From contig NC_058386.1 of assembly GCF_018350175.1 (NCBI RefSeq), forward strand, positions 126,666,001-126,730,000: a stretch of DNA of 64,000 nucleotides. The letters run 5' to 3'. Both the position numbers and the translations under genes were made by a program. This stretch comes from Felis catus (taxonomy: Eukaryota). This document shows positions 1 to 25,790 of the stretch, piece by piece (position 1 is the stretch's first letter; each line of letters starts with the position of its first letter). The notes under the pieces were generated by a model, which saw only the letters and a program-made list of their open reading frames with translations, ran no database searches and was not told the origin of the DNA.

Positions 1-916
<916 letters not shown>

Positions 917-1633: not shown

Positions 1634-2745
1634 ATGGAGGCGGCAGACGCAGCCGCAGGCGGCGAGGCGGGCGGCGCCCACAACGCCCGGGACGGCCAGG
1701 GGGGCCAGGAGGGCCAGGAGGGCCAGGGAGGCGGCCTCGGCCGCCGCGGGCACGGTCATGGCCTCGGAGGCGCGGACGCGGAGGCCGCGGTCGCCGGCGA
1801 GGCTCCGCGTGTCCCGCGACCACCTCACGCCCCCGGGCCAGGCGGAGATGCCCTCTCCACGGCCGGAAGGCCGGAAACCCGAGTACACATATTGTATCCT
1901 AGCCGAGGGGACAGCGGGCATGGGCAGGGGGCGGAAAGGGAGAGGAGCTGTGGTAACCTGAGGTGCGCGGGGCAAAGATCTGAGAGCAGGGTGATCACGG
2001 GGTGGCTGGAGAGAGGTGGGGGAGGAGGAAGGAAGGAGATCAGGGGGGAAACGGGTTCCCGGGGGCGGTGGGCGGACATGGGCCTGGTAACGGGGTGGCC
2101 GCGAGCCATTAGGGTCGGGAGTGGGTGGCCTCGTCAGGGTGGCCTGAGAAGGGGACTCAGGCCCTAAGTGAGTAGTGGTGGTACCTTAACCGAATCTGCA
2201 CCCAGCGCCCTCGGCGTGCCTTTCCCGTCCCAGTTGGAGGCGGAGATCGCCTGTGCGTCTTTCGCCCCATATCGGGACCCGTATGGATGCCTTGTGGGGC
2301 AGCAGCTCACTGTGTTCGGCAGCGTCCTGGCCATGTTAGTTCTGGAAGGGCCGGGGTCGGGGTGGCTGCAGGTGGCGGGTCCAGTCTCCATGGGGGGCGG
2401 GGGGGAGGCGCTCTCTGCTGGATCGTCGAGGGCTAGGTGCGGGCCAGGGCCCGCAGGCTCTAATACCTGCACCTGCGGGTAGGGGGGGGGTCGCTCCTGG
2501 GGGCGGGGAAGGGTGCAAGGGATGGGTACCTGGGCGGGGAGGGGAGCTGAGCGAGGAAGGGGAGGATCCACCACCTCCAACTTGATTGCCTTTTCTCCTC
2601 TCTCAGCCGCTGGAGAGCTGAAAACCCTTTCCTCCTCCGAATTTCCATCATCAACTTTCTTGACCAGCTTTGCGTGGTGATTCGGACCATGCAGCGCTTC
2701 CGGTTCCCGGTTCCCGCTAAGCCTGCGCTGGCGAAAGGGGGCTAA
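1634..2745 (+). CDS. LAGE3/CTAG-family Pcc1-domain protein, copy 1 (LAGE3-like, 175 aa); exons 1634-1893, 2206-2334, 2607-2745
   Basis: ACCATGG start and Gly/Ala-rich exon 1 ending RVHI-F. Exon 2 is ALGVPFPSQLEAEIACASFAPYRDPYGCLVGQQLTVFGSVLA-I. Exon 3 is RWRAENPFLLRISIINFLDQLCVVIRTMQRF...KGG*, versus LAGE3 RWKAEDCRLLRISVINFLDQLSLVVRTMQRF. Both introns are phase 2; AATAAA at 2925-2930. Confidence 0.88.
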
Positions 2746-3264
2746 GGTCTAGCCTCGTGTCCCCCGTCTGGGCGGTCCGTCCTTCCTAGGGCAGTGATTC
2801 CTGCGCTAGCTGCCACCTGAGGTTGGGCGCCTGCCTGGTCTTCTGAGGGCAATGAGGGCCCGAGCCCTTGGGCACTCATGGTCCCCTTGTTTTGTTTGCC
2901 ATTTAAATGTTTGCTACTGCAGAAAATAAAACTGAGTTTTGCTATTCCCTGTTCCTTCTCAGTTGTGGCACCCCCGGATAGTCTTCCCTTTGTCCTCAGG
3001 CGGGGGGGGGGGGGTAGGGGGGGAGGAGGGGGGGCGGGGCGGCTCCTGGGATGTCGACGTGCAAGTCGCGGAAGGTGGTAGAAGGCAGTTTGGGAACTGG
3101 CAGAACCCACGTGCGTCCTGTCCTTCGGTATCAAGGACTCTCAACATGTGGGAATATGCCCATCGTTTGCACGTTTCGCATTACTCCTGATGTCTTTCAT
3201 CTAATGTGAACTTTTTATCCAAACTCTTCAAAAATATTGAATGAGTGCAGGAAAGATGCATTAA

Positions 3265-3480
3265 GGGCACCTGGCAGGCTCAGTCGGTTGAGCGTCTGAC
3301 TTTGGCTCAGGTCGTGATCTCGGAGTTGGTGAGTTCCAGCCCCGTGTCAGGCTCTGTACTGACAGCTGAGGGTCTGGAGCCTGCTTTGGATTCTATGTCT
3401 CCCTCTTTCCTCTGCCCCTCCCCTGCTCAGTTTCTGTCTCTCAAAAATTAATAAACTTAAGTTTTTTTTATAAAAAGAAA
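3265..3480 (+). mobile_element. CanSINE (feline type)
   Basis: gggcacctggcaggctcagtcggttgagcg head, CT-rich tract and A-tail; TSD aaagatgcatta. Confidence 0.9.
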
Positions 3481-3778
3481 AGATGCATTATAATATTCTA
3501 ATGTAACTACTGAACGTTTAAATTGCTTTCACCTTTTTGCCCTATTTTAGGTAATGACTCAGTGGAACTCTTGCATATGACCTTGCACGAATGATTGCTT
3601 CCTTCCACTAGGTTAAAAGAGGTACAATTAGTGGGTAAATATTTAGTATATTTTTTAAAGCTCTGTCAAGACTGCAAAATTAGTCTCCAGAAAACGTACC
3701 TACCACTCTGCCAGAATGCTGGTTTTGCTACACCTTATCACTGCTGGCTCTGGCAAAATTTGAAAACAAAATTCATTT

Positions 3779-4102
3779 GGGGGTGCCTCTGGCTCACTTG
3801 GTTGACTGTCCTACTCTTGATTTCAGCTCAGGTCATGATCTCAGTTTGTGAGATGACAGTGGGGAGCCTGCTTGGGATTCTCTCTCTGCCCGCCCCTGTT
3901 CATGTGCACACTCGCGCCCTCTCAAGAAAATAAACATTTAAAAATAACAATTTGGGGCACCTGGGCGGCTTAGTTAAGCATCCAACTCGATTTGGGCTCA
4001 GGTCATGACCTCACGGTTTGTGAGATCAAGATCGAGCCCCATGTCTCCCTCTCTCTGCTCCTTCCCCACTCACAATCTTTCTTTCAAAATTAAAAAAAAA
4101 AA
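3779..4102 (+). mobile_element. Two tandem CanSINEs
   Basis: Two ggggtgcct/ggggcacctgg heads, each with ctcaggtcatga and an A-tail. Confidence 0.85.
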
Positions 4103-4186
4103 AACCATTTAAAAAAATCCTTAAAAAATAATGTAAAAATTAGTTTGCACGAGAAGAGCAAACAACCCAGAAACACTAGAATCAGA

Positions 4187-4376
4187 GCCTCGATGCCCGG
4201 GACCGGCAGCTGGCTGCTGGCACGTGCGCCCGGCTGGCGCCTGCGCAGACACACGTTTGGGGGGAGGGGCCGGCCGGGCCGGAAACAGTCACGTGCCAGT
4301 GGCCTACAGGAGGGGATTCTGGGCATTAGCCTCCGGCCGGTTTGCGCAGGTGCGCGGGGAGCGCAGGTGACGTCAC
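4187..4376 (+). promoter_or_regulatory. CpG-island promoter of copy 2 with E-box, NRF1-like, GC-box, ETS-like and CRE motifs
   Basis: CACGTG twice, GCGCCTGCGCA, GGGGAGGGG, CCGGAAA and GTGACGTCAC (4367-4376). The block is shared with 22655-22830. Confidence 0.6.
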
Positions 4377-4400
4377 CCGCTTCCCGAGGGAGCCTCGTTA

Positions 4401-4432
4401 GTTCGTGCGTTCGTTCGTTCGTTCGTTCGTTC
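4401..4432 (+). repeat. (GTTC)n microsatellite in the 5' leader of copy 2
   Basis: Visible tandem gttc run. Confidence 0.9.
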
Positions 4433-4468
4433 CCTCGGCGGTTCAGCCGAAGTCCAGGCCGGGGAACC

Positions 4469-5583
4469 ATGGAGGCCACAGATCGAGGCGCAGGCGGTGG
4501 GGCCGGCGGTCCCGAGGGTCAGCGTGGCCCGGGAGACCCCGGTGTCCCAGATGGCCCCGGAGGCCACGAGGGCCCCGGCGGTGGAGGTGGTGAGGGAGAG
4601 GAGTGTGCCGCGGCCGGTGCGGCCCCGCGGGTCGCGCAGGCGCCATGTGCTCCCGTCCCGGGCGCAGCTGCCGTGCCAGGGCTTGGCGGACACCCTTTGC
4701 CGGGACCCCGTGGGCACAGCGGGCCCACAGCCGGAGGGCCGGGGAGCCAGCCGCTGCAGTTGTATCCTCTTGGCCGAGTGGCGGGTGGCCGGGGCGATGG
4801 GCCTAGAGGAGGCGACGGGGCGGGGAGCGGAGGGGAGGGGGTTCAGCCTGGGGGTCCAGGGCAAGGAGGGGAGGGGGGGACCGGGGCACCGGAGGGACCG
4901 GCCCGGGGGGCGGATGGGCCAGGGGTGGCCGGGAGGGGTGGCGGGGAGAGGCGGCCTGATGGACCAGCAAGGAGGGGAGCGGACCGGAGAGGATGGAGAG
5001 GGGGGAGAGTGGCCGTGGGGAAAGCAGGCCTCGGAGTGGTCAGGACGCCTGAGGCACCGACGCGATCGGTTTTCGATGATGCCTTAACCGAATGGCTACC
5101 AGCTACGTCACCATGCCTTTCCCGTCACCCACGGAGGCACAGGTGGCCCACCAGTGTCTGGCAACACAGGGCCAGCCCCAGGTCGGGGCAGTTCGGAAGG
5201 AGTTCACGGTACTCGGCAACGTCCTAATTATGTTAGTTCCAAACGGGTCCCTCGTGGGGGGTGGTGTCAGGTCGCTAGGGCCTATCTCCTGAGGGCCGTT
5301 CTAATAGTGAATTGGAGACACCAAAGGTTAGGTCCAAAGAGGTAGGTGTGGCACCCTGAGCCTGCGGCCACCTGAGGGGGGGCAGAGAGATAGGGGCAAG
5401 AGTGATGACATTTCATTTGGATTTTCTTTTTCCCTCACTTTTAGACGACTGACTGCCGAAGACCCTGGCCAACTCCAGGTTTCCATCGCCTCCTGTCTTG
5501 ACCAGCTTTCCCTGTTGGTTTGGACCATGCAGCGCTTCGTGCCCCCGTTTTTCACATTGCCGGAGCCAGGCAAAAGGGGCTAA
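4469..5583 (+). CDS. CTAG (NY-ESO-1/LAGE-1)-like Pcc1-domain protein, copy 2 (186 aa); exons 4469-4761, 5103-5231, 5445-5583
   Basis: ACCATGG start, MEATDRGAGGGAGGPEG...GPGVPDGPGG. Exon 2 is FYVTMPFPSPTEAQVAHQCLA...KEFTVLGNVLII and exon 3 is RLTAEDPGQLQVSIASCLDQLSLLVWTMQRFVPPFF. These match NY-ESO-1 FYLAMPF..KEFTVSGNILTIRLTAADHRQLQLSISSCLQQLSLLMW. AATAAA at 5725-5730. Confidence 0.9.
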
Positions 5584-5764
5584 TTGTAACCTAGCGTCCC
5601 TTCCTTCCCTAGGGCGTCCATTCCGATGCTGGTTGCCGCTTTATTACGGGGGTCTAATTGTTCGTATTGGACTTTGGGCCTTGTTTTTCCCCATTGCTGG
5701 AGGAGGGGCGTTCTTACAGCAGAAAATAAAACTATTTTTCCGCATCTGAGTGTATTTTCAGCTA

Positions 5765-5930
5765 CAGTGTCAGAGCAAGGGGAGAAGGCAGAGAGAGAGA
5801 GAGAACCCAAGCAGTTCCTGCGCTGTGAGTGCAGAGCCCGACGCAGTGCTTGAACCCACCAACCGTGAGATCATGACCTGAGCCGAAACCGACTCAGGTG
5901 CTTACCTGACTGAGCCACCCAGGCGGCCCT
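5765..5930 (-). mobile_element. CanSINE
   Basis: gagatcatgacctgagccgaa...actgagccacccaggcg. Confidence 0.85.
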
Positions 5931-6949
5931 CGTTGATTAATTTTTCAATTGGAATAGTCATATTTTACTTATTGATTGGTGAATGCTCTTTATATACAAA
6001 GATACCAAATCTTGGCCAAAGTAATTGAAAATACTTTCCTTCCTCATTGCTTCACTGAATTCTTGTTTATAGTTCTATTCTGTACTGGAGGGTTTTTAAC
6101 TTTTTCTTGTATTTAAATATGAAGTTTATTGTCAAATTGGTTTCCATACAACACCCAGTGCTCATCCCGACAGGGGCCCTCCTCAATACCCATCACCCAC
6201 CCTCCCCCCCATCAACCCTCAGTTTGTTCTCAGTTTTTAAGAATCTCTTATGTTTTGGCTCCCTCCCTCTCTAACCTCTTTTTTTTTTTTAATGTATGCA
6301 AGTGGTACATTTTTGTCATTATGATCTTTGTAGTTTATGTCCAAGGGAAAGCCATCCCCACTGTAAAATTATAAAATTTGTCCCTCGTGCCATCTTCTAG
6401 TACTTTGAAATGTTAACACACAAGGAATTTATTGTGGTGTGAAAGATGACATTGGTCTAATTTTGTCCCCTTCCCCCCAAGGTTCCTCAGGTGTCTCAAT
6501 GTCATTTATTGACTAATCCATATGTCTCCGCTGAATTGAAATGTCGCCTTCACCAGGGTCTAAACCTGCATCTTCATTTCTTCTTGCACATTTGTTTCTC
6601 CAGCAAATTTGGGCTAGGTGATCTGGGATGGCCTCTCTGAGGAAACGGCCCGAAGGTTACAGTAGAGAAAGTTGGGATTGGTGTGGGAGAAGGGACAGAC
6701 AGAGACAGAGGAGGACAGACAGACCGACCGACAGAGAGATTTGATTGGCTCAGCTTGGATTGCCCTTCGAAGGGCGCAGGGAGAAACATGAGGACAAGAA
6801 CGAGATGAAAGAGAGAGAGGCTAGGGCATCAGTGCATTAGAGGACTGTTGCACTGGGGATACCGGAGCATTTGGGGTTTTCTTCTTTCGTTAAGAAAAAC
6901 CTATTATAAATAATACTACCATGAATATTTTGTTTAAAAAGATTGTACA

Positions 6950-7077
6950 GGGGCACCTGGGTGGCTCAGTTGGTGAAGCGTCTGACTCTTGATTTTGGCT
7001 CAGGTCATGATCTCACAGTTCTTGGCATCGAGCCCTGCATAGGGCCCTGTGCTGAGCATGGAGCCATCTTGAGATTC

Positions 7078-7116
<39 letters not shown>

Positions 7117-7180
7117 TTCTGCTTCCCCAACCCCCGCTCACGTGCATGTGTGCGCGCTCTCTCAAAAGAAATAAAAGAAA
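6950..7180 (+). mobile_element. CanSINE
   Basis: ggggcacctgggtggctcagttgg head, (CT)n tract and A-tail. Confidence 0.9.
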
Positions 7181-7970
7181 TTGAAATATATTTCTATATA
7201 TGTTTAAATACACACAACCCTAGTTTCAGTGGTGATGGAGTTTTCAGGTTATTGAGTTCACGATCTTGTAGGAACTGTACATTCCCCCATGACCTACTGA
7301 TCCAGGTTTCTGTAATTACGGCATATTACCTGGTTAGCGGCTGAGGGAGCATTATTCTACTATGTAGGAGAGTGAAGGATATGGGGAGAAAGGCCCAGAT
7401 GGGTGGCTGCAAAGTTGATGTCCAAAGTCGAGCACAAGTCCCATGTCCTCATGGGAGGGTAAGGTTTCTCAGCCAGGACACAAGCAGTGTTCTAAGGGAC
7501 CAAGCCAGAGCTGTGCCTGGAGAAAGAGATGTAAAATGAAGAGCCAGAAGCCAGAGTCAAACCCAACTTGAAAGAGTACGTAAAGAGCAATGGTGAAATT
7601 ATTTGGGTTACTCGAGTCAGAAGAAAAAGAAAGCCGGTCTTGACCTTATTCTTAAGTCAAACAGTAAACAAAGCAGGGTGCGAAATCCAGAAGCAAACAG
7701 CCACAACCACAAATAAACCAACACCAGTGTCTAATTACACAAAGGTGTTAAGCTCTGTTAGGGAAGAAAACATCATAAACAAAATGGAAAGACAAGTTAG
7801 GAAGACATTAGTAACCCAAAGGGCAAACTAAAGTGAGTATCTTCAAAACACAAGTGACCCTTAGCAAATAAATCCATAAAAGACACAAACAGCCCAGAAG
7901 ATTGTACAAATGACAGGACCATGGGATTCCTGGAATAAGGATTATAAACAGCCAATTTGGTACAGGGTAT

Positions 7971-8600
7971 TGTTTACCAGTGGGAGCGTCTACATAGCGT
8001 GAATGGAAGCCTCCACTCTTGGATCCCCCACGGAACGTTCCCATGAGGATCTGCGCTCAAATAAGGACAGCCAGAAGGAAAGCAGCAAGCACAAAGCAGT
8101 TTATTAAGGACAGTGCACTCTCCAGGTGGCAGAGCGGACAGGCCCAGAGGTGTCTGGGGTTTGGGGTGTCTTTTCTCTGTATGTTTGCATAGGTTCCGGA
8201 TGGGTCACAGCTAGGGGGGTCTCCCACTGAGGGTGCTTCCCATCATGTGGGCAACTCCTCCTACCGGTTGGGAGGGGGAGTTTTTCTGGCCCCGCCCACA
8301 AGGTTCTGGCCAGAAGAGTCCATGGCCATCTTCCCTTGGGCGGGGAGAGTTGAAAACAAAACGAGGTAAATCTAGTATAATGAAGCTGTAGGTTACCCTG
8401 AGGCCAACCAAGGTTGAAGAGGAGAACCCCTGTTCTGCACCTGTGGCCCTTGGTCTGTCAACCTGGGGGTGTTGGAAGCCATAGGACCAGGATGTTAACA
8501 GCCACAAAGTCAGGACATTGTGCCCTCAGGCTTCTAACGTGTCACCTATTTAACACCGCCTTTGCCTCTGGCTCATGTCTAACCAACTGCCTACTTGATC
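7971..8600 (-). mobile_element. Solo ERV LTR
   Basis: About 630 bp starting TG, flanked by the 5-bp direct repeat GGTAT (7966-7970 and 8601-8605). An internal TTTATT near 8100 is a minus-strand polyA signal. Family not determined. Confidence 0.65.
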
Positions 8601-8899
8601 GGTATGATCCTATGTATGCAAACAAGCAAAAGAAAAACCGTTATAAACGCAGATGAATATATCCTAGGAAAAAGTCTGGGAGGACGCACGTAAAACTGGT
8701 CATAATGGTTACTGCAGACACTGAGTTTATGGGAAATGTTTACTTTCTAACAACACACCTTTGTGTAAGGCATGAATGATTTTATAACACGCATACATTA
8801 TAGTGGAAAAAAATTTAAATATCTAAGCGTTCGGAGCTGTAAGTGCACTATGATTCCAGTTTTGCTTGCCTACTTTATATGTGTATGCACGTACATTTG

Positions 8900-9148
8900 G
8901 TTTTTTAAAAATTTTTTAAGTATATTCATTTTTTTTGAAAGACAGAGAGAGACAGAGAGACAGAGAGACAGAGAGACAGAGCACAGCAGGGGTGGGGCGG
9001 AGAGAGAGGGGGACACAGAATCCAAAGCAAGGCTCCAGGCTCTGAGCTGTCAGCACCAGAGCCCGACGTGGGACCCGAACTCACGAACCGCAAGATCAGG
9101 ACCTGAGCCGAAGTCGGACGCTCAACCGGCTGAGCCACCCAGGCGCCC
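8900..9148 (-). mobile_element. CanSINE
   Basis: Reverse consensus, flanked by the repeat gcac(g/a)tacatttg. Confidence 0.9.
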
Positions 9149-9511
9149 GTGCACATACATTTGTAGTGCAAGAAGAAACCTGAAATAAACCATCAAAATG
9201 TTTACAGTGAGGTTCTCTCGCGGTGGTGAGGTTATAGAGGGCATTTTTTTCTTTTTTGGTCACTTTGTAAGTTTCTGTAACTGCACAACCTATGCAATGA
9301 CCATGTTTTACTTCCATAAATAGAAAGCAGTGTTTTAGAAAGAGGGGGGGGAAAAAAGAGCAACAGAAATATTTGATCGTTGCTGAAAATGGGGGGAAAC
9401 CTGGCACCCAAAATAGGATTCACCAAATGGATCACGTGCATGACATTTCAAACTCCTGTGTGATTGGATTCACCCCCAAAGCACTGGCATGTGCCAGCCC
9501 CACCCTGGAGA

Positions 9512-10095
9512 AGATCTTCATGAGCTTACACACATGGGGGGAAATGCCTGGTGGGATGGTAGGCCGAAGGCCTTCCAGTGCCACCTTCATTCCAATNNNN
9601 NNNNNNNNNNNNNNNNNNNNNNNNNNNNNNNNNNNNNNNNNNNNNNNNNNNNNNNNNNNNNNNNNNNNNNNNNNNNNNNNNNNNNNNNNNNNNNNNNNNN
9701 NNNNNNNNNNNNNNNNNNNNNNNNNNNNCCAGGCAGGTGCATACCTGCGCCCAGGGCATTGGAAGGAGAACCTGACGTCGGCCGTGCTGGTTCGGGCAGT
9801 CATGTCCTCATCAATCATTACACTACGGCTGCTGAGCGCGTGTCGTGGGATGAGGGGCTCTAGAGTGTGTACGAGGGCCATGCCCCTTGCCATGTCCAAT
9901 GCAAACGTCACAGCCTGGCTCTGGTCCACAGCAAAATTGGTGCCTTCGTGTAATACATTGTACAGGGAGGGATCCATATGGCATCCAGTGTGCGACGAGG
10001 GTGGGGTGTGGAGCAGGTGGAGACTGACAGGCACCTAGCACTGGGAGCACATTCGGATGTGAGAAACTCCTGAGCCGGGGACACTCCTCGTTGAT
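9512..10095 (-). pseudogene. Processed ILK (integrin-linked kinase) fragment
   Basis: [32 protein letters not shown]...[11 protein letters not shown]...ALDMARGMA...[28 protein letters not shown] matches the ILK pseudokinase domain. It is intronless, has a 4-bp duplication frameshift near 9965-9972, and is truncated at both ends. Confidence 0.93.
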
Positions 10096-10111
10096 TTGAT
10101 GTGACCAGTGC

Positions 10112-11045
10112 CTAGGAGGCACTTTCTTTCCCGAGGGCCTTGAACAAAGCCCTCTTCACCTCCTTGTTTCGCATGCTGTAGATGACGGGGTTGAGCATGG
10201 GGGTGAGGACCACGTACAGCACAGGGAGCGCCCGGTCCCGCAAGCCAGAGCACGCAGAGCTGGGGAGGATGTAGCAGAGGACTGGAGCGATGTAGAAAAT
10301 GCAGACCACGGTGGTGTGAGCACCACAGGTGGAAAAGGCTTTTCTTCGGCCGTCAGCGGAGTGAATCCTGAGAATCGCAGCCACAACACGTACACAGGAG
10401 ATCGCAACCGGGGCACGGGGTGCAAGAGCCACCACGAAACTGAAGACGAACATGGCAAGCTCGCTGGCCCACGTGCTTGAGCAAGAGAGTCTGGTCAGTG
10501 GAGGGAGGCCACAGGAGAAGTGGGTGATGAGGCGAGGCCCGCAGAACCTCAGTGGAGCTGCAAGGACGGTGTGGGCGAACGCATCGGCCAAGGCAAGCAG
10601 GCGGGAGGTGGAAGCCATTCCTGCCCGGGTCCGTCCGACGGCCCAAGAGGACTAGGTGGTGCGGTGGCCGGCCGATGGCTGCATAGCGGTCACAGGCCAT
10701 GGCTGTGAGCAGGAAGCACTCCCAGGGAGCCAGGAAGTGGAGAAAGAAGATCTGGGGAAGACAAGCACGATAGGGCACGGTCCGCACTGCTGCCAGCAGG
10801 TGTTCCAGCACCTGAGGCCCCGTGCTGGAGATGTAGGCAGTGTCCAGCAGTGAGAGGTTGACTAAGAAGTCGTACATGGGAGTGTGGAGTCGGGAGTCCA
10901 TCACAGTAAGGCTGGCAATGCCCAGCCACGCTGTGGACCAGCAGAAAGATCACAAAGAGCAAGGGCCTCAACTCCTCTGCGTCGGCCAGCCCTTCCAGAA
11001 GGAACAGCGACACTCGGGTCTCATTCCCCAGCTGCCCGGAACCAT
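10112..11045 (-). pseudogene. Olfactory receptor pseudogene
   Basis: OR motifs GNETRV, LHTPMY, MACDRYAAI, KAFSTCGAH and PMLNPVIYSMRN are spread over three frames, with frameshifts and a deletion near TM1. The position matches the OR locus known between the CTAG genes and GAB3 in other mammals (from memory). Confidence 0.9.
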
Positions 11046-11572
11046 GCGCAGAAACCTGCACCTGTAGAGTCCAACTCAGAGTCAGATGAGGATCCAAGTG
11101 TGGAGTTCCAATTTGCACAAGGCAGCAGGGGTGAGGGAAGGTCCAGAGACAACAACAACAACAAGAAAAAGAGACAGGTTTCAAGCTTAAGAAAATAAGA
11201 CTCAGAATTGGGGGAGTGAGGCTAGGTTCAGGAGGCCAGCGGTAAGGTAGAGGCCAGTAGAATGGAATCGGTAACCCCACACCAAGACAAGGTGCACAGA
11301 CCTTGAAGCCACGGTGCATGCACCTCCTGCAAGGATATCAAAGTCGGTCCCTCAGAAGCTTCTACCTGAATAAGGACCCTAGACCTCGTAATTACCTGCA
11401 GTGGTCCCCTTATTTCACCCTCACCAACCCAGCAGAGCCCCAACTCAGGAGCAGTGATAGGACACTAGTCAGGTCCCTCCTCCTCCCGCTCTGAACCTTT
11501 CAGTGCCTCCCATCTCACTCAGCGTCAAAGCCAAAGTCCCCCCGGCGACCTACCAGGCCCTCTGTGATACGC

Positions 11573-11620
11573 TCTCCCTCCTCTCCTCTCCTCTCCTCTC
11601 CTCTCCTCTCCTCTCCTCTC
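11573..11620 (+). repeat. (CTCTC)n simple repeat
   Basis: Visible tandem ctcctctcctct run. Confidence 0.85.
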
Positions 11621-13580: not shown

Positions 13581-14727
13581 TGTTTTTCTAAAAATATCAA
13601 TAAAGCTGATTTTGAAAAATAAAGTGTAACCAGGGAATATTAGGAACAATATTTGTGGGTAAGTTTCCCAATTTAGATGAAATGGACAAATTCCTTGAAT
13701 GACACAACTTACCAAAACTGACTCAAGAAGAAATAGAAGACCCGAATATCCCTACATCTATGAAAGCAATGGAGCCAAAAACTCCAGGCCCCCGTGGGTT
13801 TACTAGTGGCTACCTCCAAATACTTAAAGGAGAACTATCACCACTCCTACGCAAATGCTTTCAGGAAGCAAAGGAGGAGAAACATTTCCCAAATCATCTT
13901 ATGAGGCCAGCATTACACAACCCCAAAACCAGATGAAGACATTGCAAGAAAAGTAAACCACAGGGCAATATCCTTCAGGAAGTCACACACACAAAAGAAC
14001 TTGATTCGATATTAGCAAATTCAACCCAGCAACATACAAAGAGGATGATACCATCATGGCCAAGTGGGGTTTATCCCAAGAATTGGTTTTCATTAAAAAC
14101 AAAAAAGTCAATCAGTGTCATCTGTCATAATAAGAAAATGAAGGAGAAAAAACATGTGATCATTTCAACAGACACAGAAAAAAAGCATCAGACAATATCC
14201 AACAACCACTCGTGACAAAAACTCTCGGAAAACTAAGACTAGAGGGAAACGTTCTTAATCTGATAAAGGGAACCTACAAAAATCCTACAGCTAACATGAT
14301 ACTTAATGGTGAAAGATAGAATCACCGCCCCCGCTCCCTCGCCCGCAAAGTTTGAGAAACAAGGTATGGATGTTCACCACTTCCATTCAACACTGTCCTG
14401 GAAATCCTAGGCAGTGCACTAGGCAAGAAAGAGAAATAAAAGTAGTGACACAGATTGCAAAAAAAGAAAAGGGATTATCTTTATTCAGAGATGACATGCT
14501 TGTTTACGTAGAAACCCCTAAGTGATGTACAAAAAAAAGAAGAGTGACATTTTAAAAAATCACTACCATTTATAATAGCATCCCCAAACATGAAGTATTT
14601 GGGGACACATGTAATAACATATGTGCAAAACCTTTACGGTGAACACTAAAACCTATTGATAAGTGAAAGAAAGCTTACAAAAATGGAGAAACGCATCCTA
14701 TGCGTGGAGCGGAAGATCCTGTATTCT

Positions 14728-14823
14728 TTTTTCTTTTAGCGTTTATTTATTTATTTTGGAAGAGACAGAGAGAGCATGAGCAGGGGAGGGGCAGAGAGAG
14801 AGAAAGGGAGCGAGAGAGGGAGG

Positions 14824-14861
<38 letters not shown>

Positions 14862-14988
14862 CCCAAGCAGGCTCGGAGCTGTCAGTGCACACCCCGACTC
14901 TGGGCCCGGTCTCACAAACCGTGAGATCATGACCTGAGCCGTAATCAAGAGTCAGACGCTTAATCGACTGAGCCACCCAGGTGCCCCA
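14728..14988 (-). mobile_element. CanSINE
   Basis: Reverse consensus with a (GA)n tract; flanking repeat cctgtattctt. Confidence 0.9.
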
Positions 14989-16163
14989 AGGCCCTGTATT
15001 CTTAAGATGTACACTCCCACCACACCATTCTAGAAATTCATTGCAAACCCAGTAAAAATCGTGATGACGCAGAAATGGACAAGCTGATTCCAAAGTGTAT
15101 ATCCAAATGCAAAGAACCTGGAATAGGCAGCTCGAACTTGCAAAAGAGGAATAAAGTCGGGAGACATAGGATGACTAAAAGAGGATACAGACACAATGGA
15201 AAGTTCACATGTCACTGGTGGGACTGTAAATTGGTATGATCACATCGGAAAACAGTGCTTCCGTTTCTTATACAGTCACACTTACGCTTACCATGTGACC
15301 CAGAAATCCCACTTCTGCTAGTTACACAAGGGAATTAAAAATATATGTGTGTGCAAAGACTTGTACGTGAATCTTCGTATCAACTTGATTAACAATAACC
15401 GCAGTTTGGAAACAAGCCAAACGTCCAATAGCAGGTGAGTGGTTAAGCCTAAGTTACGGTACATCCACGCAATGGAATACCGGTCAGCAACAAAGAAGGA
15501 TGGACATACTGTGTGATTCCTGGAAATTCCAGAAAAGGCAAAATCTAAGCTGAATTTGCTGTGTGGGGGCACACTGTAGAGGAGGACATTGTCTGCACGG
15601 AGGCACAAGGGTGACTGTGAGAGCGATGGGAATGTTCTGTATCTCGGCTTTGGCTGTGGACACCTTTGTCGTAACTCATGAAACCGTACGCTTAAATGTG
15701 TGCAACTTCCCATACGTGCATTTTGCCTCAAATAAGCTGAGCAAAAACAAAAAAAGAGAAGGGACAAACAAAAACTGAATAGCAAAATGGCAGACTTACA
15801 TCCGACCATATCGGTAATCGTATTAAATGTGAGTTTGCCAAACAGTCCAATTTAAAAGCAGACATCGTTAGAAGGGTGCTTTCTTTAAGTGACCAAACTA
15901 CACGCTGTCTACGTGAGCCACATTCAAGATACAAAGACACCAATAGGTTAGAAGTAAGAGGATGGAAAAGGACTTACGAATAAATAGTGAGCAAAGAAGC
16001 CTGATGTGGTTATATCGATATTAGAGAAATCAGACTTCGAGGAAAACTGTGTTACCAAAGATGAAGGGATGCGTTTCATACTAGTAACAGCAGCAATGAA
16101 TCCATCTGGAAGAGAAAATGATCATAAATATGTCTGAGCCTAATGACACACCTTCAAAATGCA

Positions 16164-16410
16164 CGGGGCGCCTGGGTGACTCAGTCGGTAAGCGTCTGAC
16201 TTCGGCTCAGGTCATGATGTCACCGTTGGTGAGTTCCAGCCCAGCGTCGGGCTCTCTGCCCGTCGGCACCGAGCCTGCTTTGGATCCTCTGTCCCCCTCT
16301 GTCTCTGCCCCTCCCCCACTGGCTCTCTCTCTCCCCCTCTCTCAAAATAAATAAACTTAACACACACGCACACACACACGCACGCACGCACGCAGACACA
16401 CGCGCGATGC
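16164..16410 (+). mobile_element. CanSINE with a (CA)n tail
   Basis: Consensus head ggggcgcctgggtg. Confidence 0.9.
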
Positions 16411-16819
16411 AAGAATTTTTGAGATTAACAGGTGAAAGGGACAAGTCCAAAATCACGGTTGGAGTTTTTAACATCCTCTCTCAGCAAGCGAGAGAGAGAG
16501 ACAACACACTCTGTTAAAAGAAATAGAGCAGGGATTGGCAAACTACCGCCTCCTGGCCAAATCCAGCCCGGGGCCTCTTTTATGTGAAAAGTTTGTTGTC
16601 CCCCGACATAGAACATACGATCAGTGGTATCACCTACCTTGACCGATGTCTTTAGAACACTAAACAGGAGATCTGAATTTCACATGTGTGTCCACTACAC
16701 ATTGTTTTCAAGTACAAGTATGTTCGCCAAGATAAAGCATTTTCTGAGCCACGGACCAATTCTCAACACATTTCAACGTCAAGGATTGAAATTTAACCCG
16801 GTACGTCTCTGACCAGCCT

Positions 16820-17090
16820 TGCCTTGTTCTTGATTCTAGAGGGAAAGCTTTCAACCTCTCACTGTTGCGTATGATGTCAGCTGTGGGTTTTGTCGTATGT
16901 GGGCTTTGTGGTATTGAGCTATACAACTTTTCTCTGCCCCCATTCGTGGAGGGTTTTTATCATGGAAATATGTTCTATTTTGTCAAATGCGTTTTCTGCA
17001 CCTAGGGAGATGATCATATGGTTTTTATCTTTCATTCTAACGATGCGGTGCTTCGTTTATAGACACGCATGTGTTGAAAGATCCTTGTTT
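16820..17090 (-). mobile_element. Antisense L1 ORF2 fragment
   Basis: ccttgttcttgattctagagggaaagctttcaac...tttgtcaaatgcgttttctgcac...gatgatcatatgg is reverse-strand L1 ORF2. Confidence 0.8.
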
Positions 17091-17399
17091 TCCGGCTGCA
17101 GGTTCCTCCTGCCCGTGCCCGGAGATGAGAGCTGCCTGCCCCGTAGACAGTGACAAAGAACAGGGCAGACAGAGACAGTCCGAGGCTCAGGCTGAGGCGC
17201 TCTTTGGTGACACTGCTCATTGAAATGCTTCCACCAGCCACAGGCCGCTCTAGACACTGGCCACCTTCTTGCTGTGACACCTGCCTCCAGGACAAGGCAG
17301 CTGTGCCTTTACTTTCCTCACTTGTCCTGAGGACCTATTCGGAGACGCTCAGGTACAGATTCGTGACTATAGAGTCACGGAGTTCTACACAGCTCAGTC
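17055..17399. repeat. Inverted duplication arm B (pairs with 19920-20264)
   Basis: Near-identical reverse complement of about 345 bp. ORFs 17150..17602 (+) and 19768..20169 (-) share about 78 aa. Confidence 0.95.
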
Positions 17400-17855
17400 A
17401 CGTGCTCAGAGGCTTTAGGAGTTGGGCCATGGCAGTCTGTTTGGGCATGGACAGTGGGGATCATGAGCCGCACCACCGTGTGGGGAGTAGTGTCAGGCAG
17501 AGGCTTCCTGGATATCGCAGCTGGCGGGCCGTCGAAGGCTCGTGGCACGGCTGGTTCAGGCAGACGCATCGACGCGGGTGCCCATTTGGGCAGACGCCCT
17601 AGGGTGTCGTGGCACTCTAAGGGGTGGAGCTTCATAGGTGAGAACTGATTGGCTACAGAAGGGACTGCTTGGTGGGAACCAATCACAGGTCAGGAGGCAT
17701 TACCAGTGGTCCGTGTGGACAGTTGCTCTGGGCATCCGGAATTGCATTGTGGAGTAAAGGGGTGAAGCATTGTGAGAGAGCGCTTTGTCCTTCAGTGATG
17801 CCTTGAGAGGGTGGGCGGATTCAAAGTTGGGTCTCAGGTGGCTGGTGGAGGCCCC

Positions 17856-19012
17856 GTGAGGGCAGCAGACGAAGGCACGGGTGCCGTGGGCGTGGTGGTG
17901 GGCGCAGCAGGTGGTGGCCAGTGTGTGCCAGGTGGACCTCGTGGTGTCAGTGGCCCCAGAGTCCCTGGTGGTTCGGGTGGTGCCTGTGACCCTGGCCATC
18001 CCAGCAACCCCGGAGGCCTGAGCGATCCGGAAAGAACCAGCATTGTGGGAGAGGTAGGTGCCGCCTCTGGTGGCGCTCTCCAAATGGAGCGGGCACCCTA
18101 CACACCAGGTCCTGGTGGAGATGCCGCGCCTGGCGCTAGAGGTCCTGGTAACCGACTGCTTCAGTTGTATCCTATTCAAGGAGTCCCAGCGGGCTGGACG
18201 GCAGGGGGATGGGCTGGAGGTGGTCTGGCGCGCGGCGGGGTGGGGTGTGGGGGGGAGACTTGGGGAAGTGGAGTTGAAAGGGGAGCAGGAGGGAGCTCCG
18301 GGCACCTGGAGGGTATCGGCTAGGGTTTGGCCCGTGCTGACAGAGGATGGGGAGTGGGGTGGACCGCCTGATGGGACTGAAGCGGTAGGGACAATGCTAT
18401 CCGGGGTGGCCTGGCTGTATAGGGTGGGAGGTTGTGGACAGCCTGAGGGTCAGCCTGGGGTGGGGAAGGCAGGCCTCACTGAAGAGGAGGCCTGAGGCAC
18501 AGGCAAAATTAGTACTGTGGATGGTGCCTTAACCCAGTCTCCACCAGCACCCTCACTATACCTTTCCCCTCGGCCATGGATGCGGAGATTGCCCACAGGT
18601 TCCTGACTCCAAACGAGGAGCTCCAGGAGCCAGTTCGGGAGGAGCTCCATGTGAACGGCAGCATCCTGACTGTGTTAGTTCTAGAACGGTCCAGGGAGAG
18701 GGTGGTGGCAGGTGACCAGGGACAAGGTCAATTCCGGAGGAGCTGTAACGGAGACAAGGGAAACAGGAAAGGAGTGAGTCGAAGGAAGGAGTGTGGTGCT
18801 CTAGGATCGTTGCTGTGTGAAGGGGCGGAGCGGGGAATGTGCCCCACCGGCCCTCTAACTTGACTTATTTTTTCCTACCTCGTAGCCGCTTGACTGCCGA
18901 TGACCCTGGCCAGCTCCAAATGTCCATCACCTCCTGTCTTGGCCAGCTTTCCCTAGTGATACGGGCCATGCAGATCATCATGCCCCCCTTTTTCACAAAG
19001 CCGCAGCAGTGA
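17856..19012 (+). CDS. LAGE3/CTAG-family copy 3 with an open spliced frame but GTG at the ancestral start (next in-frame ATG 18084); exons 17856-18166, 18548-18673, 18886-19012; may be a pseudogene
   Basis: (V)RAADEGTG...GPGNRLLQ-F / TLTIPFPSAMDAEIAHRFLTPNEELQEPVREELHVNGSILT-V / RLTADDPGQLQMSITSCLGQLSLVIRAMQIIMPPFFTKPQQ*. Intron phases are the same as in copies 1 and 2. No AATAAA at the homologous site. Confidence 0.7.
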
Positions 19013-19919
19013 AAAGGTGGCTGGACCCAACTCTGTGTCCCCCCCACATGACAGTGATTCCTGCAGCAGCTGCCGTTTTCTTACTGAGGCCGCATCTTTT
19101 GCCTATACTGGCCCTTGGGTGCTTCAGATCCACATTTTTTTTTTTTTTTTTTTTTTTTTTTTGGTGATCAAATGGTAACTGCTACTATTCTGTGTCTGGG
19201 TTTATTTTTAAAGCATCTACGCCTTCTCCTATTCTCGCCTTTGTTCTCAGGTAGGGGGAGAGATTCTGACATTCAGATACTCAAGTACTAGAAGGCAATT
19301 GAAGAAGACAAGTTAGGCGACGGGAGAAAAAAATTATGTCCTGTTATTCAGGACATTAACTACTGTCAACATGTTAGAACTTTTGTTTTAGTTTTATACT
19401 AGCATGTACATAGTCATGTATAATACCTGCAGAGTAGGACTTTGTGGCTTCTCGGCCTTGATTCAGATCTGTGCAGAAGAGCGCTGGGACAGCTGGCTAG
19501 GTCGGCCCCACTGCCCATTCTATACTCCCGTGTCATCAGAGGCCTCATTCCCTGAGGTTCCGAACCCACAATTCTCAGAGCTCCTTGTGGTTGGCTCTCA
19601 CTTGTATCATCCTTCCCCAAAGTGTTTTTCCAGTTTATTACGCTGCTGCTTGCTTCCCTGAAGTCCTGACAAGGGTCCTGGAGGAAAACAAAAAGGGGAA
19701 GAGGTCTCCCTGAGGTGGGGAGGGGACATGAAGTACATTACCCTTTGCCTTCCCCTCCAAGACTCTCTTATTTAGCACAACAGTGGGGCCACGTACAAGG
19801 CACCCGAGTGGCTGAGGAGGGGAATGGGCGACGCCCCGGTGCACGAGGTGAGTCTCTAAATCGGAGAGAGGAGGAACAGAGCCTTGCCTGAGGGAGAATT
19901 AGCAGTGTCAGCAGAGAGA

Positions 19920-21196
19920 GACTGAGCAGTGGAGAACGCCGTGACTCTATAGTTACGAATCTGTACCTGAGCGTCTCCAAATAGGTCCTCAGGACAAGTG
20001 AGGAAAGTAAAGGCACAGCTGCCTTGTCCTGGAGGCAGGTGTCACAGCAAGAAGGTGGCCAGTGTCTAGAGCGGCCTGTGGCTGGTGGAAGCATTTCAAT
20101 GAGCAGTGTCACCAAAGAGCGCCTCAGCCTGAGCCTCGGACTGTCTCTGTCTGCCCTGTTCTTTGTCACTGTCTACGGGGCAGGCAGCTCTCATCTCCGG
20201 GCACGGGCAGGAGGAACCTGCAGCCGGAAAACAAGGATCTTTCAACACGTGCACGTCTATAAACCCCGCCCTCGGCCGCCTCTCCAGCAGCTGCTGCCTC
20301 TCCAGCGGCTGCTCCCTCACCAATCGTCGCCACGCGCTGTGACGCGTGACCCCACTGCACCCACGCAAACCAGTCCCACCTCAGCTCCACCCCCTCCCCA
20401 CACCCCTAGCCCCTCCCCAGACCTCGTGGGAGGCCGCCAGGCACCACGGCCTGTTGTCCAGAGGGCCCTGCCTCTTCCTTGGGCTCAGTGTCCCCAGCAC
20501 GTGGGGCTCCACGACCTCGCAGCGGTTCGTGGAGGGAGATGGGCCACAGCCAAGACGGACACGGCCCCGCACCCCGTCCCCTTCCCCGGTACCGGTGGAC
20601 ACACCAAAGCGGCCTTTGGAGGGGGCGACTGAGCACAGGTGCGGATCAGATCGGCGGTCTGGGAAGGTCACGAAGGGGCTCCCGTCGGGGGGCAAGCCTG
20701 CCAGTAGCAGGCAAGGAGGGAAGGGATGGCGACTGGAGCTAAAGTAGTTAGTGGCCACGGAGAACAGGGATGCGGTCGCATAGGGAAAAACCACAGTGCA
20801 AAAGGGAAATCACTAAAATCCCAACTTAGGAAGCTACTGTATATGTGCACGGAAATCCTGCCACGGTAGCCTGAAGTGTAAACACCTCGTATGTCTGTGT
20901 GGTGGGATTGAGGGTGGTCCCCACTTCTTTTGTGTGCATTTCTCCCCCAAAAGGTTCACAATGACTTTACATGACCTTTGGTGTTTTCAATTCTTTGACA
21001 TCCTTGTGTGCGTGATCTCTACGCCCCACGTGGTGCGGCACTCACGACCCAGTGAGTGCTTCCACAAGTCAGGCTTGAGAGAGCAGATGATGCCATCCAG
21101 GGCGCCGGGCAGCAGCACTCCCCGCACCAACAGCACGACGAGGACCACGCAGGGGAAGGTAGCCGTGAAGTACACGAATGGGGCGGGGGAGGGACG
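19920..21196. repeat. Composite inverted copy: revcomp(17055-17399) joined directly to revcomp(1-916)
   Basis: The junction tctataaac|cccgccctcgg lies at ~20264. Confidence 0.92.
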
Positions 21197-22162
21197 GGGG
21201 GGGTAACCTGCTCAGAAGGGGCCCTGCGGCCCCGCCTCCCCACTTAGGGGTCCCCAGCCTCAGCAGGGGGGCAGGCGGGCCACACTCCCCCCACTGTGGT
21301 ACGGTCCGCTCCGAGGTCAAGCGGGAGGCCAGCCTGCAGCCCCCCCTTCTACTCCTCAGAGCCTGGGCTCCTCCCGAAGGAAGCGGGGTGCTCAGCTGGC
21401 CACCGGCCGCCCCCGCAAGGACAGGTCAGCTGTAGAGAGGGAGGGCGGAGGCAGGACCTTCCCCGGGTGGGGAGCAGGACATCGGCCTGGAGGCAGGTCC
21501 CATGCCTCCTGTGGTTCTCTGCACAGAGGCAGGGTCCTGGGCAGGACGGAGTGGACTGGGCCGGCCGGAGACAGAGGCGACAGCGAGGTGACCGCGAAGA
21601 CCTCTGCCTCCGTCCCACCCTCAGCAGAGCAGGACAGGTAGGCAAGGGAGGGCCACGGGCCGGGTCCCCCCAGGCTGGCCGCAAAGCAGAGAGTGAGGAA
21701 GTAGTGAGTGAGGAAGAGAGGGAAACTGTGGCGGGGATGCCCGACACAGGCAAGTTCAGCTGGCGGTCGCCTGGGCCTGTCCCCTCAGGACGGAAGTCGG
21801 CTGGGCTGGAGTGTGGAGGTTGCGGAGGACTACCCAGGCACGCGTGGGAAATCCACCGGGCTGGGTTCAAGGACCTGCCCCCGCCTCAGGCCCTGGCCCG
21901 GTCACCTCGCATGGCAGGGTGCCCCTGCCCCCCCCCCGGCAGAGACACCCCTTCTCCCCACCGGCCATGCTGCCCCCACCCCTGCCATCATCACCCACCC
22001 CGACCCGCCGGCCTCCAGCTGTACCTTTCCTGTTGACTTGACCCCCTTGCAGACACAGAAGTAGGCCAGCACCCAGCAGGCCTGCAGACACAGGGTCACC
22101 TCCCAGTTGAGGGACCCTGGCACGTCCAGCCCCCCCACCCCGAGAGCCGAAAGACTTTGTTC
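21060..22162 (-). pseudogene. Unprocessed SLC6A8 fragment, copy B (exons 22025-22162 and ~21060-21178 with the intervening intron)
   Basis: The first exon reads [44 protein letters not shown] followed by gtacag. After an ~850 bp intron comes [30 protein letters not shown]. There is a frameshift in a G-run and the second acceptor AG is lost. Confidence 0.9.
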
Positions 22163-22654
22163 CTGGGGGGAGGGGGGGACAGCCCATCAGGGCTGCCGCA
22201 GCAGAGGGCAAAGCGACCGGGGAGCTGTCGCCGGGGCGGTGCTCCCCCGTGCCGCTGCCCTCAAGTCCAGGTGGGCCCCCCTGGGCCCCCGGCCCAAGCC
22301 CACAGCCATTGCAGTGGGAGGCAGGAGCCCGGGAGCCCCCGGCCGGAGGCCGGTCGCGCCCTCGGCGGTGTACCCTCCCCCAGGCTGGCAGGCACTAGGG
22401 GACTGACGGCGCCCGGGACCGACAAATGGTGAGGGAGCCAGGCCCATCCCTTCCAGCTCCCCTAGGGGCCGTGCGGGGTGTGCTCCCTGAGGACAGGCAG
22501 GGCCTGGGAGTGGCCCCTGCTCCGCTTCCCGCGTAGGCCCCCCCCCCGGCCCCCGGGTCGCAGGGCCCCCGGGACACGCAGACCCGAGCCATACGGGGAG
22601 CCCACAGACAGGGACAGGCACGGTGCTGCCCAGAAGCGCCTGAGCGCGGCCCAC

Positions 22655-22830
22655 GCCTCGATGCCCGGGACCGGGCGGGCGGCGGTCAGCTGGCTGCTGG
22701 CAAGTGCGCCCGGCTGGCGCCTGCGCAGACACAGGCTTGGGGGGAGGGGCGGGCCGGGCCGGAAACAGTCACGTGCCAGTGGCCTCACCAGAATGCTCTC
22801 GGGGACGTAGGAGCCCGACAGTGACGTCAC
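22655..22830 (+). promoter_or_regulatory. CpG-island promoter block of copy 4, near-identical to that of copy 2
   Basis: 22655-22785 versus 4187-4305 shows 4 substitutions plus one 12-nt indel by eye. CRE GTGACGTCAC at 22821-22830. Confidence 0.6.
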
Positions 22831-23075
22831 GCGTCGGGGGGCGCAGCGTCCGGAACCAGCCTCCATCTCCTCGGGGTCAGCGTCGACCGGATCCAGGCTC
22901 TGCCGGCTCGGTGGGAACCAGCTCCGCGGGGTCTGTCTGCGCAGGTGCCCTGGCCATCCCCGACAGCCTTGCGCGCCGAGGGGCCGGGCTTCGCGAGGCC
23001 TGCCAGGGGTCTCAGCGGTCGGCCGACAGTGGGCGCAGCGTAGCGGTGGGCTCTGAGGAGGCCGGTGCGGCGGCC

Positions 23076-24229
23076 ACGAGGGCCCCGGACGACGAAGCGG
23101 CCTCTCCGGCCCCGGACGACGGCGCGGAGGAAGTGGCTGTCACGCAGGCCCCTGACGATGACGGCGCGGACGGCGCGGCGGTCACGCGGGCTCCCGAGGG
23201 TGGCGCGGAGGACGCGGGGGCAGGCCCACAGGCCTCCGACGGAGGCACGGACGGCCACGACCCCCAGCTTAGCCCCCGAGGTCCCGGTTGCCAGGGCAAC
23301 TGCAGCCGCCACGATGGCGAGGGTGGCCCTGGCAGCAAGGGAGCAGTGGTCGAGGGGGCCTGCGCCCCTCCCCTGGCCGAACGGGCCCCGAGGGCCCTGG
23401 CCCCCGGTGGAGACGCAGCGCCGGCGGCGGCGGCGGTGACCTCCTCAGGACTGCTGGAGTTGTATCCTTTCCGTGGAGCCTGTCTGGGCAGGGGCCGTGG
23501 CGGGGTGGCTGGGGAGCAGGGCGGCAGCCCGGGGAAGGGACGGACGGGGGCGGGGGTGGGCAGCCTGGCGGGCCCCCAGGGTGGGGGAAGCGGCTCAGGG
23601 TGGGCAGAGGTGGCGGGAGGGAGCGCGAGTGTCCCGGGGGTAGAGGCGGGCCTCTGAGTGGTCAGGAGGCTTCAGGCCATGGGAACTCCAGGAGCCCGTT
23701 GTGCCTTAACCGGGTGCCTCCCAGCAGGCTCACTGTGTCTTTCCGGTCGCCCCTGGAGGCAGAGATGGCCCGCAGGGCCCTGACTACACACGTCCAACGC
23801 CACCGAGGGTTGGCTCAGAAGGAGCTTTGCGTGAGGGGCAGCGCCCTGGCCGTGTGAGTCCTCCAACAAGAGTATGCGCGGGACGGGTGGGCGGTGGCGG
23901 CGGGTGCCGTGGTCGCATCTCTGCCTTCCAGTGCCGTCGTGGAGGCCCCGACGCACGCTGTTAGGTGGAAGGCGGGGGGGGGGGGGGGGGGGGGGGGGGG
24001 GTTGTGTGGGGGAAGGGGCTGGTGCCCTGCACCTCCACAGCAGGTCTCCCCTTTAACCGGATTTCCCTCTTCCCTCACTTCTAGGAGATGGACTACTGAA
24101 GACCCCATCTGCTTCCGAGTTTCCGTCAACTCCTTCTTGGACCGGCTTCCCCTGGTGATACGAAACATTCGCGCCTTGGGGTCCCGGCCTCCGCGGCGCC
24201 TAGGTCCGGGAAAGGGGGCCGAGGCCTAA
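23076..24229 (+). CDS. LAGE3/CTAG-family copy 4 with an open spliced frame and no in-frame ATG in exon 1 (candidate ACG start 23076); exons ~23076-23461, 23725-23853, 24085-24229; may be a pseudogene
   Basis: ...APGGDAAP...SGLLE-F / RLTVSFRSPLEAEMARRALTTHVQRHRGLAQKELCVRGSALA-V / RWTTEDPICFRVSVNSFLDRLPLVIRNIRALG...EA*. Exon 2 has the conserved 129-nt length and both introns are phase 2. Confidence 0.68.
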
Positions 24230-25509: not shown

Positions 25510-25521
25510 TCCTTTTTTTCT

Positions 25522-25561
<40 letters not shown>

Positions 25562-25790
25562 TCCCTTTCTCTTTTGTTTGAATGCTTTTATTTAGTGTTT
25601 GAGAGCAAGACAGAGACAGCGTGAGCGGGGAAGGGGCAGAGAGACAGAGAGGGAGACACAGAATCTGAGGCAGACTGCAGGCTCTGAGCTGTCGGCACAG
25701 AGCTCGACGCAGGGCTCAAACCCACGAACTGTGAGATCGTGACCTGAGCCGAAGTCAGACCCTCAACCGACTGAGCCACCCAGGCACCCC
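25510..25790 (-). mobile_element. CanSINE with a (CTTT)n tail
   Basis: Reverse consensus. Confidence 0.9.

Follow-up and report, generated by a model that had tools for sequence, protein, structure and literature searches.

Introduction

In metazoan KEOPS (PDB 6GWJ, 9FL9), the complex responsible for the N6-threonylcarbamoyladenosine (t6A) modification of tRNAs, LAGE3 (ESO3) serves as the Pcc1 subunit and binds OSGEP. In the accessible text of structural reports, loop 82-93 of the human protein (human LAGE3 numbering is used throughout) lies near the anticodon and F137 touches OSGEP (bioRxiv 10.64898/2026.03.03.709218), the same loop of the worm complex holds U35 (PMC13377070), and Pcc1 is described as required for modification rather than for tRNA binding (PMC7718258). 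Here we analyse a stretch of 64,000 nucleotides of the cat genome, positions 126666001-126730000 of contig C47 of the Felis catus assembly (hereafter, the window), in which four genes, named copies 1 to 4, encode Pcc1-domain paralogues of the LAGE3/CTAG family.

CTAG1 and CTAG2 are the sole human paralogues listed in the available part of PMC9889334, and the family, its clustering on the X chromosome and the testis expression of its human members are already known, as told in the accessible text of PMC3418287 and PMC9889334. NY-ESO-1, a major immunotherapy target, is said in the available text of PMC11399778 to have a function 'not extensively characterised'. The presence of CTAG proteins in KEOPS is already in print as assertion or speculation, in a report whose searched text holds no OSGEP data for CTAG1B (PMC9158115). 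A preliminary description of the window, made from its letters only, envisaged four deeply diverged but frame-intact paralogues, forming a diversifying and probably germline-expressed repertoire of candidate alternative KEOPS subunits.

Results

The four copies are real Pcc1-domain genes, already annotated. All four models lie on the forward strand and comprise three exons, with exon 1 ending in phase 2, exon 2 being 129, 129, 126 and 129 nucleotides (nt) long in copies 1 to 4, respectively, and no stop or frameshift in any spliced frame, so that splicing and translation agree with the models of the preliminary description. Pcc1 (PF09341) was, as expected there, the only Pfam family matched by the eight exon-2 and exon-3 translations, five of them passing the curated cut-off singly; exon 2 covers profile positions 3-45 and exon 3 positions 47-75. 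The best sequence match in the PDB is to LAGE3 (E 4e-15), and cat LAGE3 shares with all copies the three exons, the U12-type first intron and a low-complexity N-terminus. Entries in RefSeq, named LAGE3-like or cancer/testis antigen 1-like, correspond exactly to copies 1-3, while cat copy 4 is misnamed collagen-like or spidroin-like, apparently because of its lost ATG. Prior automated annotation in RefSeq or UniRef, anticipated as a possibility, hence exists for all four genes, and the findings are modest as genome annotation.

Copies 2-4 retain 32-36 of the 75 domain residues of LAGE3 (64-66% identity in domain DNA), while copy 1 retains 60; the label 'deeply diverged' thus suits the former three and not copy 1. 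The exon-3 motifs (LAGE3-like in copies 1 and 4, NY-ESO-1-like in copies 2 and 3), the loop strings PYRDP, TQGQP, PNEEL and THVQR, and a terminal MQRF confined to copies 1 and 2 agree with the first description. On the contrary, the gene starts proposed at 17856 and 23076 fall on GTG and ACG codons. The frame of copy 3 is open upstream of its first ATG, at 18084, through that GTG; a start equivalent to 18084 is used in annotated otter, seal, sea lion and colugo relatives; in the bear and mink models, which are longer, that residue is Val. At 23076, ACG replaces ATG in 7/7 assembled cat copy-4 loci, other felids having Met, with ATG-bearing open frames in Panthera, Neofelis, Leopardus and Prionailurus.

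Intron 1 carries a GTATCCT donor and a CCTTAAC branch, the minor-spliceosome (U12) consensus, in all four copies and LAGE3, even though the intron bodies of the deep paralogues are only 40-61% identical; judged by these signals, it is of minor-spliceosome type in every copy. CpG-rich starts are likewise retained. Intron 2 of copy 2 (213 nt; within window 5103-5583) and of LAGE3 (243 nt) is open in frame and a multiple of three long, so its retention would add a peptide within the domain rather than truncate it.

Table 1. Features of the window and related loci. Positions refer to the window unless a contig is named.
Feature	Position	Strand	Details
Copy 1, felid LAGE3 duplicate, 175 aa	1634..2745	+	Exons 1634-1893, 2206-2334, 2607-2745; AATAAA near 2925; XP_044907038.1 (P0038)
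Copy 2, CTAG1/NY-ESO-1 lineage, 186 aa	4469..5583	+	Exons 4469-4761, 5103-5231, 5445-5583; AATAAA near 5725; P0054 'cancer/testis antigen 1-like'
Copy 3, 111 aa from first ATG	18084..19012	+	Exons to 18166, 18548-18673, 18886-19012; P0092 'LAGE3-like'
Copy 4, 219-codon frame from ACG	23076..24229	+	Exons 23076-23461, 23725-23853, 24085-24229; within UniRef cat entry P0011
U12-type intron 1, copy 1	1894..2205	+	GTATCCT donor, CCTTAAC branch at 2184
U12-type intron 1, copy 2	4762-5102	+	
U12-type intron 1, copy 3	18167-18547	+	
U12-type intron 1, copy 4	23462-23724	+	
Amplicon unit (copy 2, olfactory-receptor remnant, copy 3, copy 4)	4204..28794	+	98-99.7% repeats on contig, both orientations
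Inverted duplicate of 4-kb LAGE3 segment, with copy 1	148..4188	+	Original at C47:126342395-126346377, minus strand
Frameshifted olfactory-receptor remnant, amplicon passenger	10115..10949	-	7tm_4 matches in two frames
SLC6-family exon fragment (SLC6A8-like in the preliminary description), amplicon passenger	21905..22186	-	SNF, E 1.7e-9, 43/524 profile positions
Broken processed LAGE3 copies	C47:78379291 (L010) and C22:21476369 (L028)		

The four-gene array makes up a single unit of a palindromic amplicon next to IKBKG. Self-comparison of 440 kb revealed a palindrome with 45-kb arms that are 99.85% identical, together with the further repeats of Table 1. Thirteen paralogue loci lie on the contig (one of copy 1, three of copy 2, four of copy 3 and five of copy 4). 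An unplaced contig (C56) holds one more copy-2, two copy-3 and two copy-4 loci (L008, L009, L013, L021, L022) in both orientations, which may represent an extra palindrome arm or redundant assembly and were counted apart. Copies of one type are near-identical, with one of six copy-3 loci frameshifted, beside an assembly gap. The true LAGE3, with its PDREP loop, lies 324 kb off on the opposite strand, with IKBKG between it and the window, as in human Xq28. From this LAGE3-IKBKG synteny we infer X linkage of the cat cluster, and its multicopy state within inverted repeats is a feature of X-linked cancer/testis antigens.

Two further amplicon pieces match the flanks of the true LAGE3 (window 20293-21050, 95% to 126345620-126346377; 26768-28557, 98% to 126338627-126340419), so that sequence exchange between the amplicon and the LAGE3 locus is not limited to copy 1. 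Regarding the broken neighbours formerly reported, the olfactory receptor is indeed split over two frames and one SLC6-family fragment is present, but no ILK copy was detected among 300 open reading frames scanned (150 of the 231 long frames and 150 of the 228 short frames). A 345-bp inverted repeat of 97.7% identity brackets copy 3 (17046-17400 and 19920-20264), and an older 3-kb inverted repeat (89%) lies between the two paralogue clusters (C47:126619654-126635546). A second NEMO-family match, with a 218-aa open frame, occurs at C16:12542690 and is possibly a retrocopy or a related gene.

Trees were built on the 75-residue domain, the later one joining 15 added sequences to 31 earlier ones, from alignments that left out partial, intron-retaining or oddly started models among 97 proteins; supports are given as Shimodaira-Hasegawa-like approximate likelihood ratio test/ultrafast bootstrap. 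Copy 4 groups with dog, bear, stoat, hyaena, meerkat, camel, donkey, desman, hedgehog, rabbit, squirrel, vole, Mus pahari and sloth proteins (92/96), copy 3 with those of otter, bear, camel, donkey, armadillo and elephant shrew (94/98), and copy 2 with a colobus CTAG1-like protein and those of bats, rhino, warthog and tamandua (95/95, weakly supported inside). Only copy 2 falls within the CTAG1 clade, copy 3 forming a separate neighbouring one. A fifth placental LAGE type (99.9/100) comprises badger, ground squirrel, peccary and pika proteins (P0127, P0124, P0321, P0416), and none of the 26 Pcc1 matches in the cat genome corresponds to it. The domain is short, and branching between and inside clades is weakly supported. 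The 127 further representatives at 50% identity, for 20 of which names were looked up, were assigned to copy 4 (35), copy 2 (12), copy 3 (6), the fifth type (13) and LAGE3 (38), with 23 being ambiguous.

Copies 2-4 consequently belong to three lineages older than the placental radiation. Since their clades reach sloth, armadillo or rodents, the repertoire is old, and only the amplification and copy 1 are felid-specific. Rather than a locally diversifying set of four, as initially thought, the array combines three old placental lineages and one young LAGE3 duplicate, the recent event being near-identical amplification. Within these lineages the stoat and desman copy-4 domains share 65 of 75 residues, cat and Panthera proteins of copies 2-4 are 95-97% identical, and felid branches are long. 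Four mosaic proteins (P0295 and P0296, from dugong and a relative, and P0110 and P0113, from panda) join a copy-4/copy-3-type domain start to a LAGE3-type remainder, a hint of paralogue conversion in other mammals or of mis-joined models.

Intactness of the frames is hardly a matter of chance. In neutral simulations with an indel rate equal to that of the non-coding DNA of the locus, or about half of it, copies 2-4 all remained open with a probability of 5e-4 to 6e-9, while both processed LAGE3 copies found elsewhere in the cat genome (76% and 70% identity) are broken. Frames are intact and U12 signals invariant over a synonymous divergence (dS) of ~0.4-0.6. The 93-97% conservation of felid proteins was rejected as proof of constraint, similar neutral change being expected over the divergence time that we assume, and deeper orthologues were for that reason used as the constraint argument. 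Altogether, the copies are very probably intact genes under selection, a judgement that for cat copy 4 taken alone is only slightly favoured.

Copy 1 nests with felid LAGE3 (99/100) as an in-paralogue. In the same tree, copies 2-4 do not group with LAGE3. The 4-kb duplicate differs from the LAGE3 segment at 191 of 3944 aligned bases, unevenly spread: exon 2 shows 19 differences in 129 positions (14.7%), intron 1 19 in 312, and the 3' untranslated region with its flank 12 in 1424 (0.8%), exon 2 thus diverging far more than the 3' flank (Fisher p 5e-14) and than intron 1 (p 0.005). The promoter region is near-identical, with 2-3 differences per 150 bases over 1050-1500. Nine positions separate 9/9 copy-1 from 10/10 felid LAGE3 proteins, and because copy 1 keeps the outgroup residue at two of them, the duplication predates the Panthera/Felinae split. 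Low flank divergence in such an old duplication therefore points to later gene conversion, in agreement with tiger and Geoffroy's cat, where lineage-specific residues are common to both genes, and with mosaic jaguar and jaguarundi models, which may be annotation errors. That the gene body stays distinct under conversion suggests selection for difference.

The loop singled out in the preliminary description turns out to be the tRNA-contacting one of published KEOPS structures. L82, P84, D85, E87 and P88 are invariant in 14/14 LAGE3 sequences spanning fish to cat, and each paralogue lineage has changes among them; cat copy 1 bears F82, Y85 and D87, and copies 2-4 retain neither D85 nor most of the others, so that none has the loop of a LAGE3 orthologue. 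Six of the 15 domain substitutions of cat copy 1 fall in the 12-residue loop 82-93 (p 0.011). On the contrary, the alpha1 pattern (E-A-x-I/M/V-A) and the hydrophobic alpha2 pattern are kept in all lineages.

These observations bear on whether the copies merely act as isofunctional back-up or dosage genes, providing ordinary LAGE3 function where LAGE3 is limiting, with loop changes as tolerated drift. The near base-for-base LAGE3 promoter region of copy 1, its 60 shared domain residues and a ratio of non-synonymous to synonymous divergence (dN/dS) not above 1 would fit such a role; nonetheless, the changes strike residues invariant from fish to cat, copy 1 is distinct in all nine felid proteins despite flank-homogenising conversion, and an archaeal Pcc1 paralogue is described as not isofunctional in the accessible text of PMC9889334. 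We consider this explanation improbable.

Modelled in complex with a bat OSGEP, without alignments, copy 4 (residues 270-356 of P0011) scored 0.71 against 0.00 for the best control; the pass mark is reached by 51/78 solved and 2/108 mismatched pairs (39/65 and 2/126 for eukaryotes). Runs share at least 81% of contacts, which lie on alpha1 and alpha2, with a partner predicted local distance difference test (pLDDT) of at least 78. Because alignments were unused and a like complex has been solved, this result would reflect likeness to that complex rather than binding. At the modelled OSGEP-contact positions, copies 1-4 carry the LAGE3 residue in 14, 9, 9 and 7 of 17 cases. The structural check of OSGEP binding hence came out compatible for copy 4, the most diverged of the four, as regards the model, and unsupported as regards special conservation of the contacts. 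A search of the ESM Atlas with copy 4 gave a best match of 0.80, to Pcc1 clusters, and was kept as a lead only.

Discussion

The reading that we favour is that the copies would substitute for LAGE3 on OSGEP while bringing an altered alpha1-beta2 loop, the part cradling the anticodon, and that the t6A activity of the resulting variant KEOPS would be changed or lowered, germ cells being the likeliest place. We infer these steps, from binding through altered t6A to germline function, and they differ in strength. Germline expression as the main site of copies 2-4 is predicted with moderate confidence; binding of OSGEP by at least copies 1 and 2, if co-expressed, is somewhat more likely than not; replacement of LAGE3 on OSGEP with changed anticodon contact by the paralogues at large is evenly balanced; and that their main function runs via changed t6A output is doubtful. 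A bolder and rather unlikely version would have placentals holding a conserved set of four or five interchangeable Pcc1 subunits for assembling germline KEOPS variants, with OSGEP docking kept, the anticodon loop rewired and t6A tuned or damped on certain tRNAs; primates would have kept NY-ESO-1 from this set, and felids would have re-derived a variant from LAGE3 (copy 1), held apart against conversion. Sequencing-run matches were discarded as expression evidence: 20 of the 24 runs listed share part of window 1500-5800, the guessed same-organism RNA matches 0.35-0.48 of words, and tissues are not given.

Several results weigh against variant KEOPS subunits. Pairwise domain dN/dS is 0.71-1.14 in 10/10 paralogue pairs, and that of copy 1 versus LAGE3 is 0.81, indistinguishable from 1 (p 0.63), so that codon counts show neither positive nor strong purifying selection; the value near 1 that the preliminary description had named as adverse to its proposal is what these pairwise comparisons gave. 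Moreover, (i) loops vary more than cores in general, (ii) contact positions of copy 4 are no better kept than the rest (7/17 versus 24/49), (iii) copy 3 has Ile and copy 4 has Leu at the F137 position, (iv) the copy 4 model may recall the solved LAGE3-OSGEP complex (6GWJ), close cousins having passed 10/12 in the test of the modelling tool, (v) the 5' flank of copy 1 also peaks at 13-15% divergence, and sequence divergence by itself also blocks conversion, which weakens the argument for selection, (vi) exon 1 of cat copy 4 has no in-frame ATG, and no AATAAA occurs within 400 nt of the stop of copies 3 and 4, and (vii) mouse Ctag2 knockout males are fertile according to the available text of PMC7270182, Ctag2 not being placed among the lineages here. 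Codon counting did not show positive selection on copy 1 (dN/dS 0.81-0.86, exon 2 alone 0.57), and codon-model fits, whose likelihood gain over the fixed model was 0.3-2.0 log units, were set aside without using their omega.

Some of these points agree better with ordinary X-linked cancer/testis genes, in which the Pcc1 fold would be kept while copies 2-4 left KEOPS for other partners or homodimers, with amplification and fast change being ampliconic X biology. Paralogue dN/dS near 1, an OSGEP-contact set that is not preferentially conserved and long felid branches in copies 2-4 would all be expected; additionally, a literature search that left most subscription papers outside found no paper on a CTAG1B-OSGEP interaction, and the accessible text of a human KEOPS proteomics study mentions neither CTAG, LAGE1 nor LAGE2 (PMC5314774). 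The alpha1 and alpha2 patterns kept in all lineages, the passing copy 4-OSGEP model and the 14 of 17 contact positions of copy 1 speak against this explanation, which is possible though not probable.

Points under (vi) could alternatively indicate that some or all cat copies are decaying, their frames looking intact only because little time has passed since the loss and a single allele is propagated by conversion. The ACG start throughout the assembled copy-4 loci, the lack of a canonical poly(A) signal downstream of copies 3 and 4, the frameshifted copy-3 locus beside an assembly gap and a degenerate-looking hyaena copy-2-like model (P0162) are in line with this. Nevertheless, an ACG codon in a G-3 context can initiate translation, open orthologues with ATG persist in four other felid genera, U12 signals and CpG-rich starts are kept, and copies 1 and 2 would be left unexplained; decay is thus very improbable.

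Variant KEOPS subunits accordingly stand as a reasonable, testable hypothesis on a known family, made directly testable by the lineage map and by the natural pair of LAGE3 and copy 1, separated by 15 domain substitutions of which six lie in the anticodon-contact loop. Should such complexes exist, a universal tRNA modification would be under tissue-specific control, which would be new. No paper was found, in the same search, on the felid amplicon, the four to five placental lineages, the conversion-resistant LAGE3 duplicate or the shared ACG.

In comparison with known systems, the cat cluster corresponds to the human LAGE3/CTAG1/CTAG2 cluster and has expanded into a palindromic amplicon. Like LAGE3, the copies have the Pcc1 domain, the three-exon layout and the U12-type intron 1, with copy 1 nested within felid LAGE3; unlike it, their L82-x-P84-D85-x-E87-P88 loop is altered, and copies 2-4 are multicopy and of low identity. 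With human CTAG1A/CTAG1B (NY-ESO-1) and CTAG2 the cat set shares the clade of copy 2, which matches the colobus protein at 46/75 residues, as well as inverted repeats and nearness to IKBKG; in contrast, copies 3 and 4, two further old lineages, persist in the cat, which also has a newly arisen LAGE3 duplicate and carries 3-5 copies each of copies 2-4. The closest precedent is archaeal Pcc2, a Pcc1 paralogue that, according to the accessible text of PMC9889334, can take the place of Pcc1 on Kae1 and alter the complex, although it arose by an independent duplication and mainly caps Pcc1 as Gon7 does. Finally, near-identical copies, highly similar 45-kb arms and fast protein change are shared with the class of palindromic, ampliconic X-linked cancer/testis families, from which the cat locus differs in that its parent gene is an essential housekeeping subunit still exchanging sequence with its duplicate.

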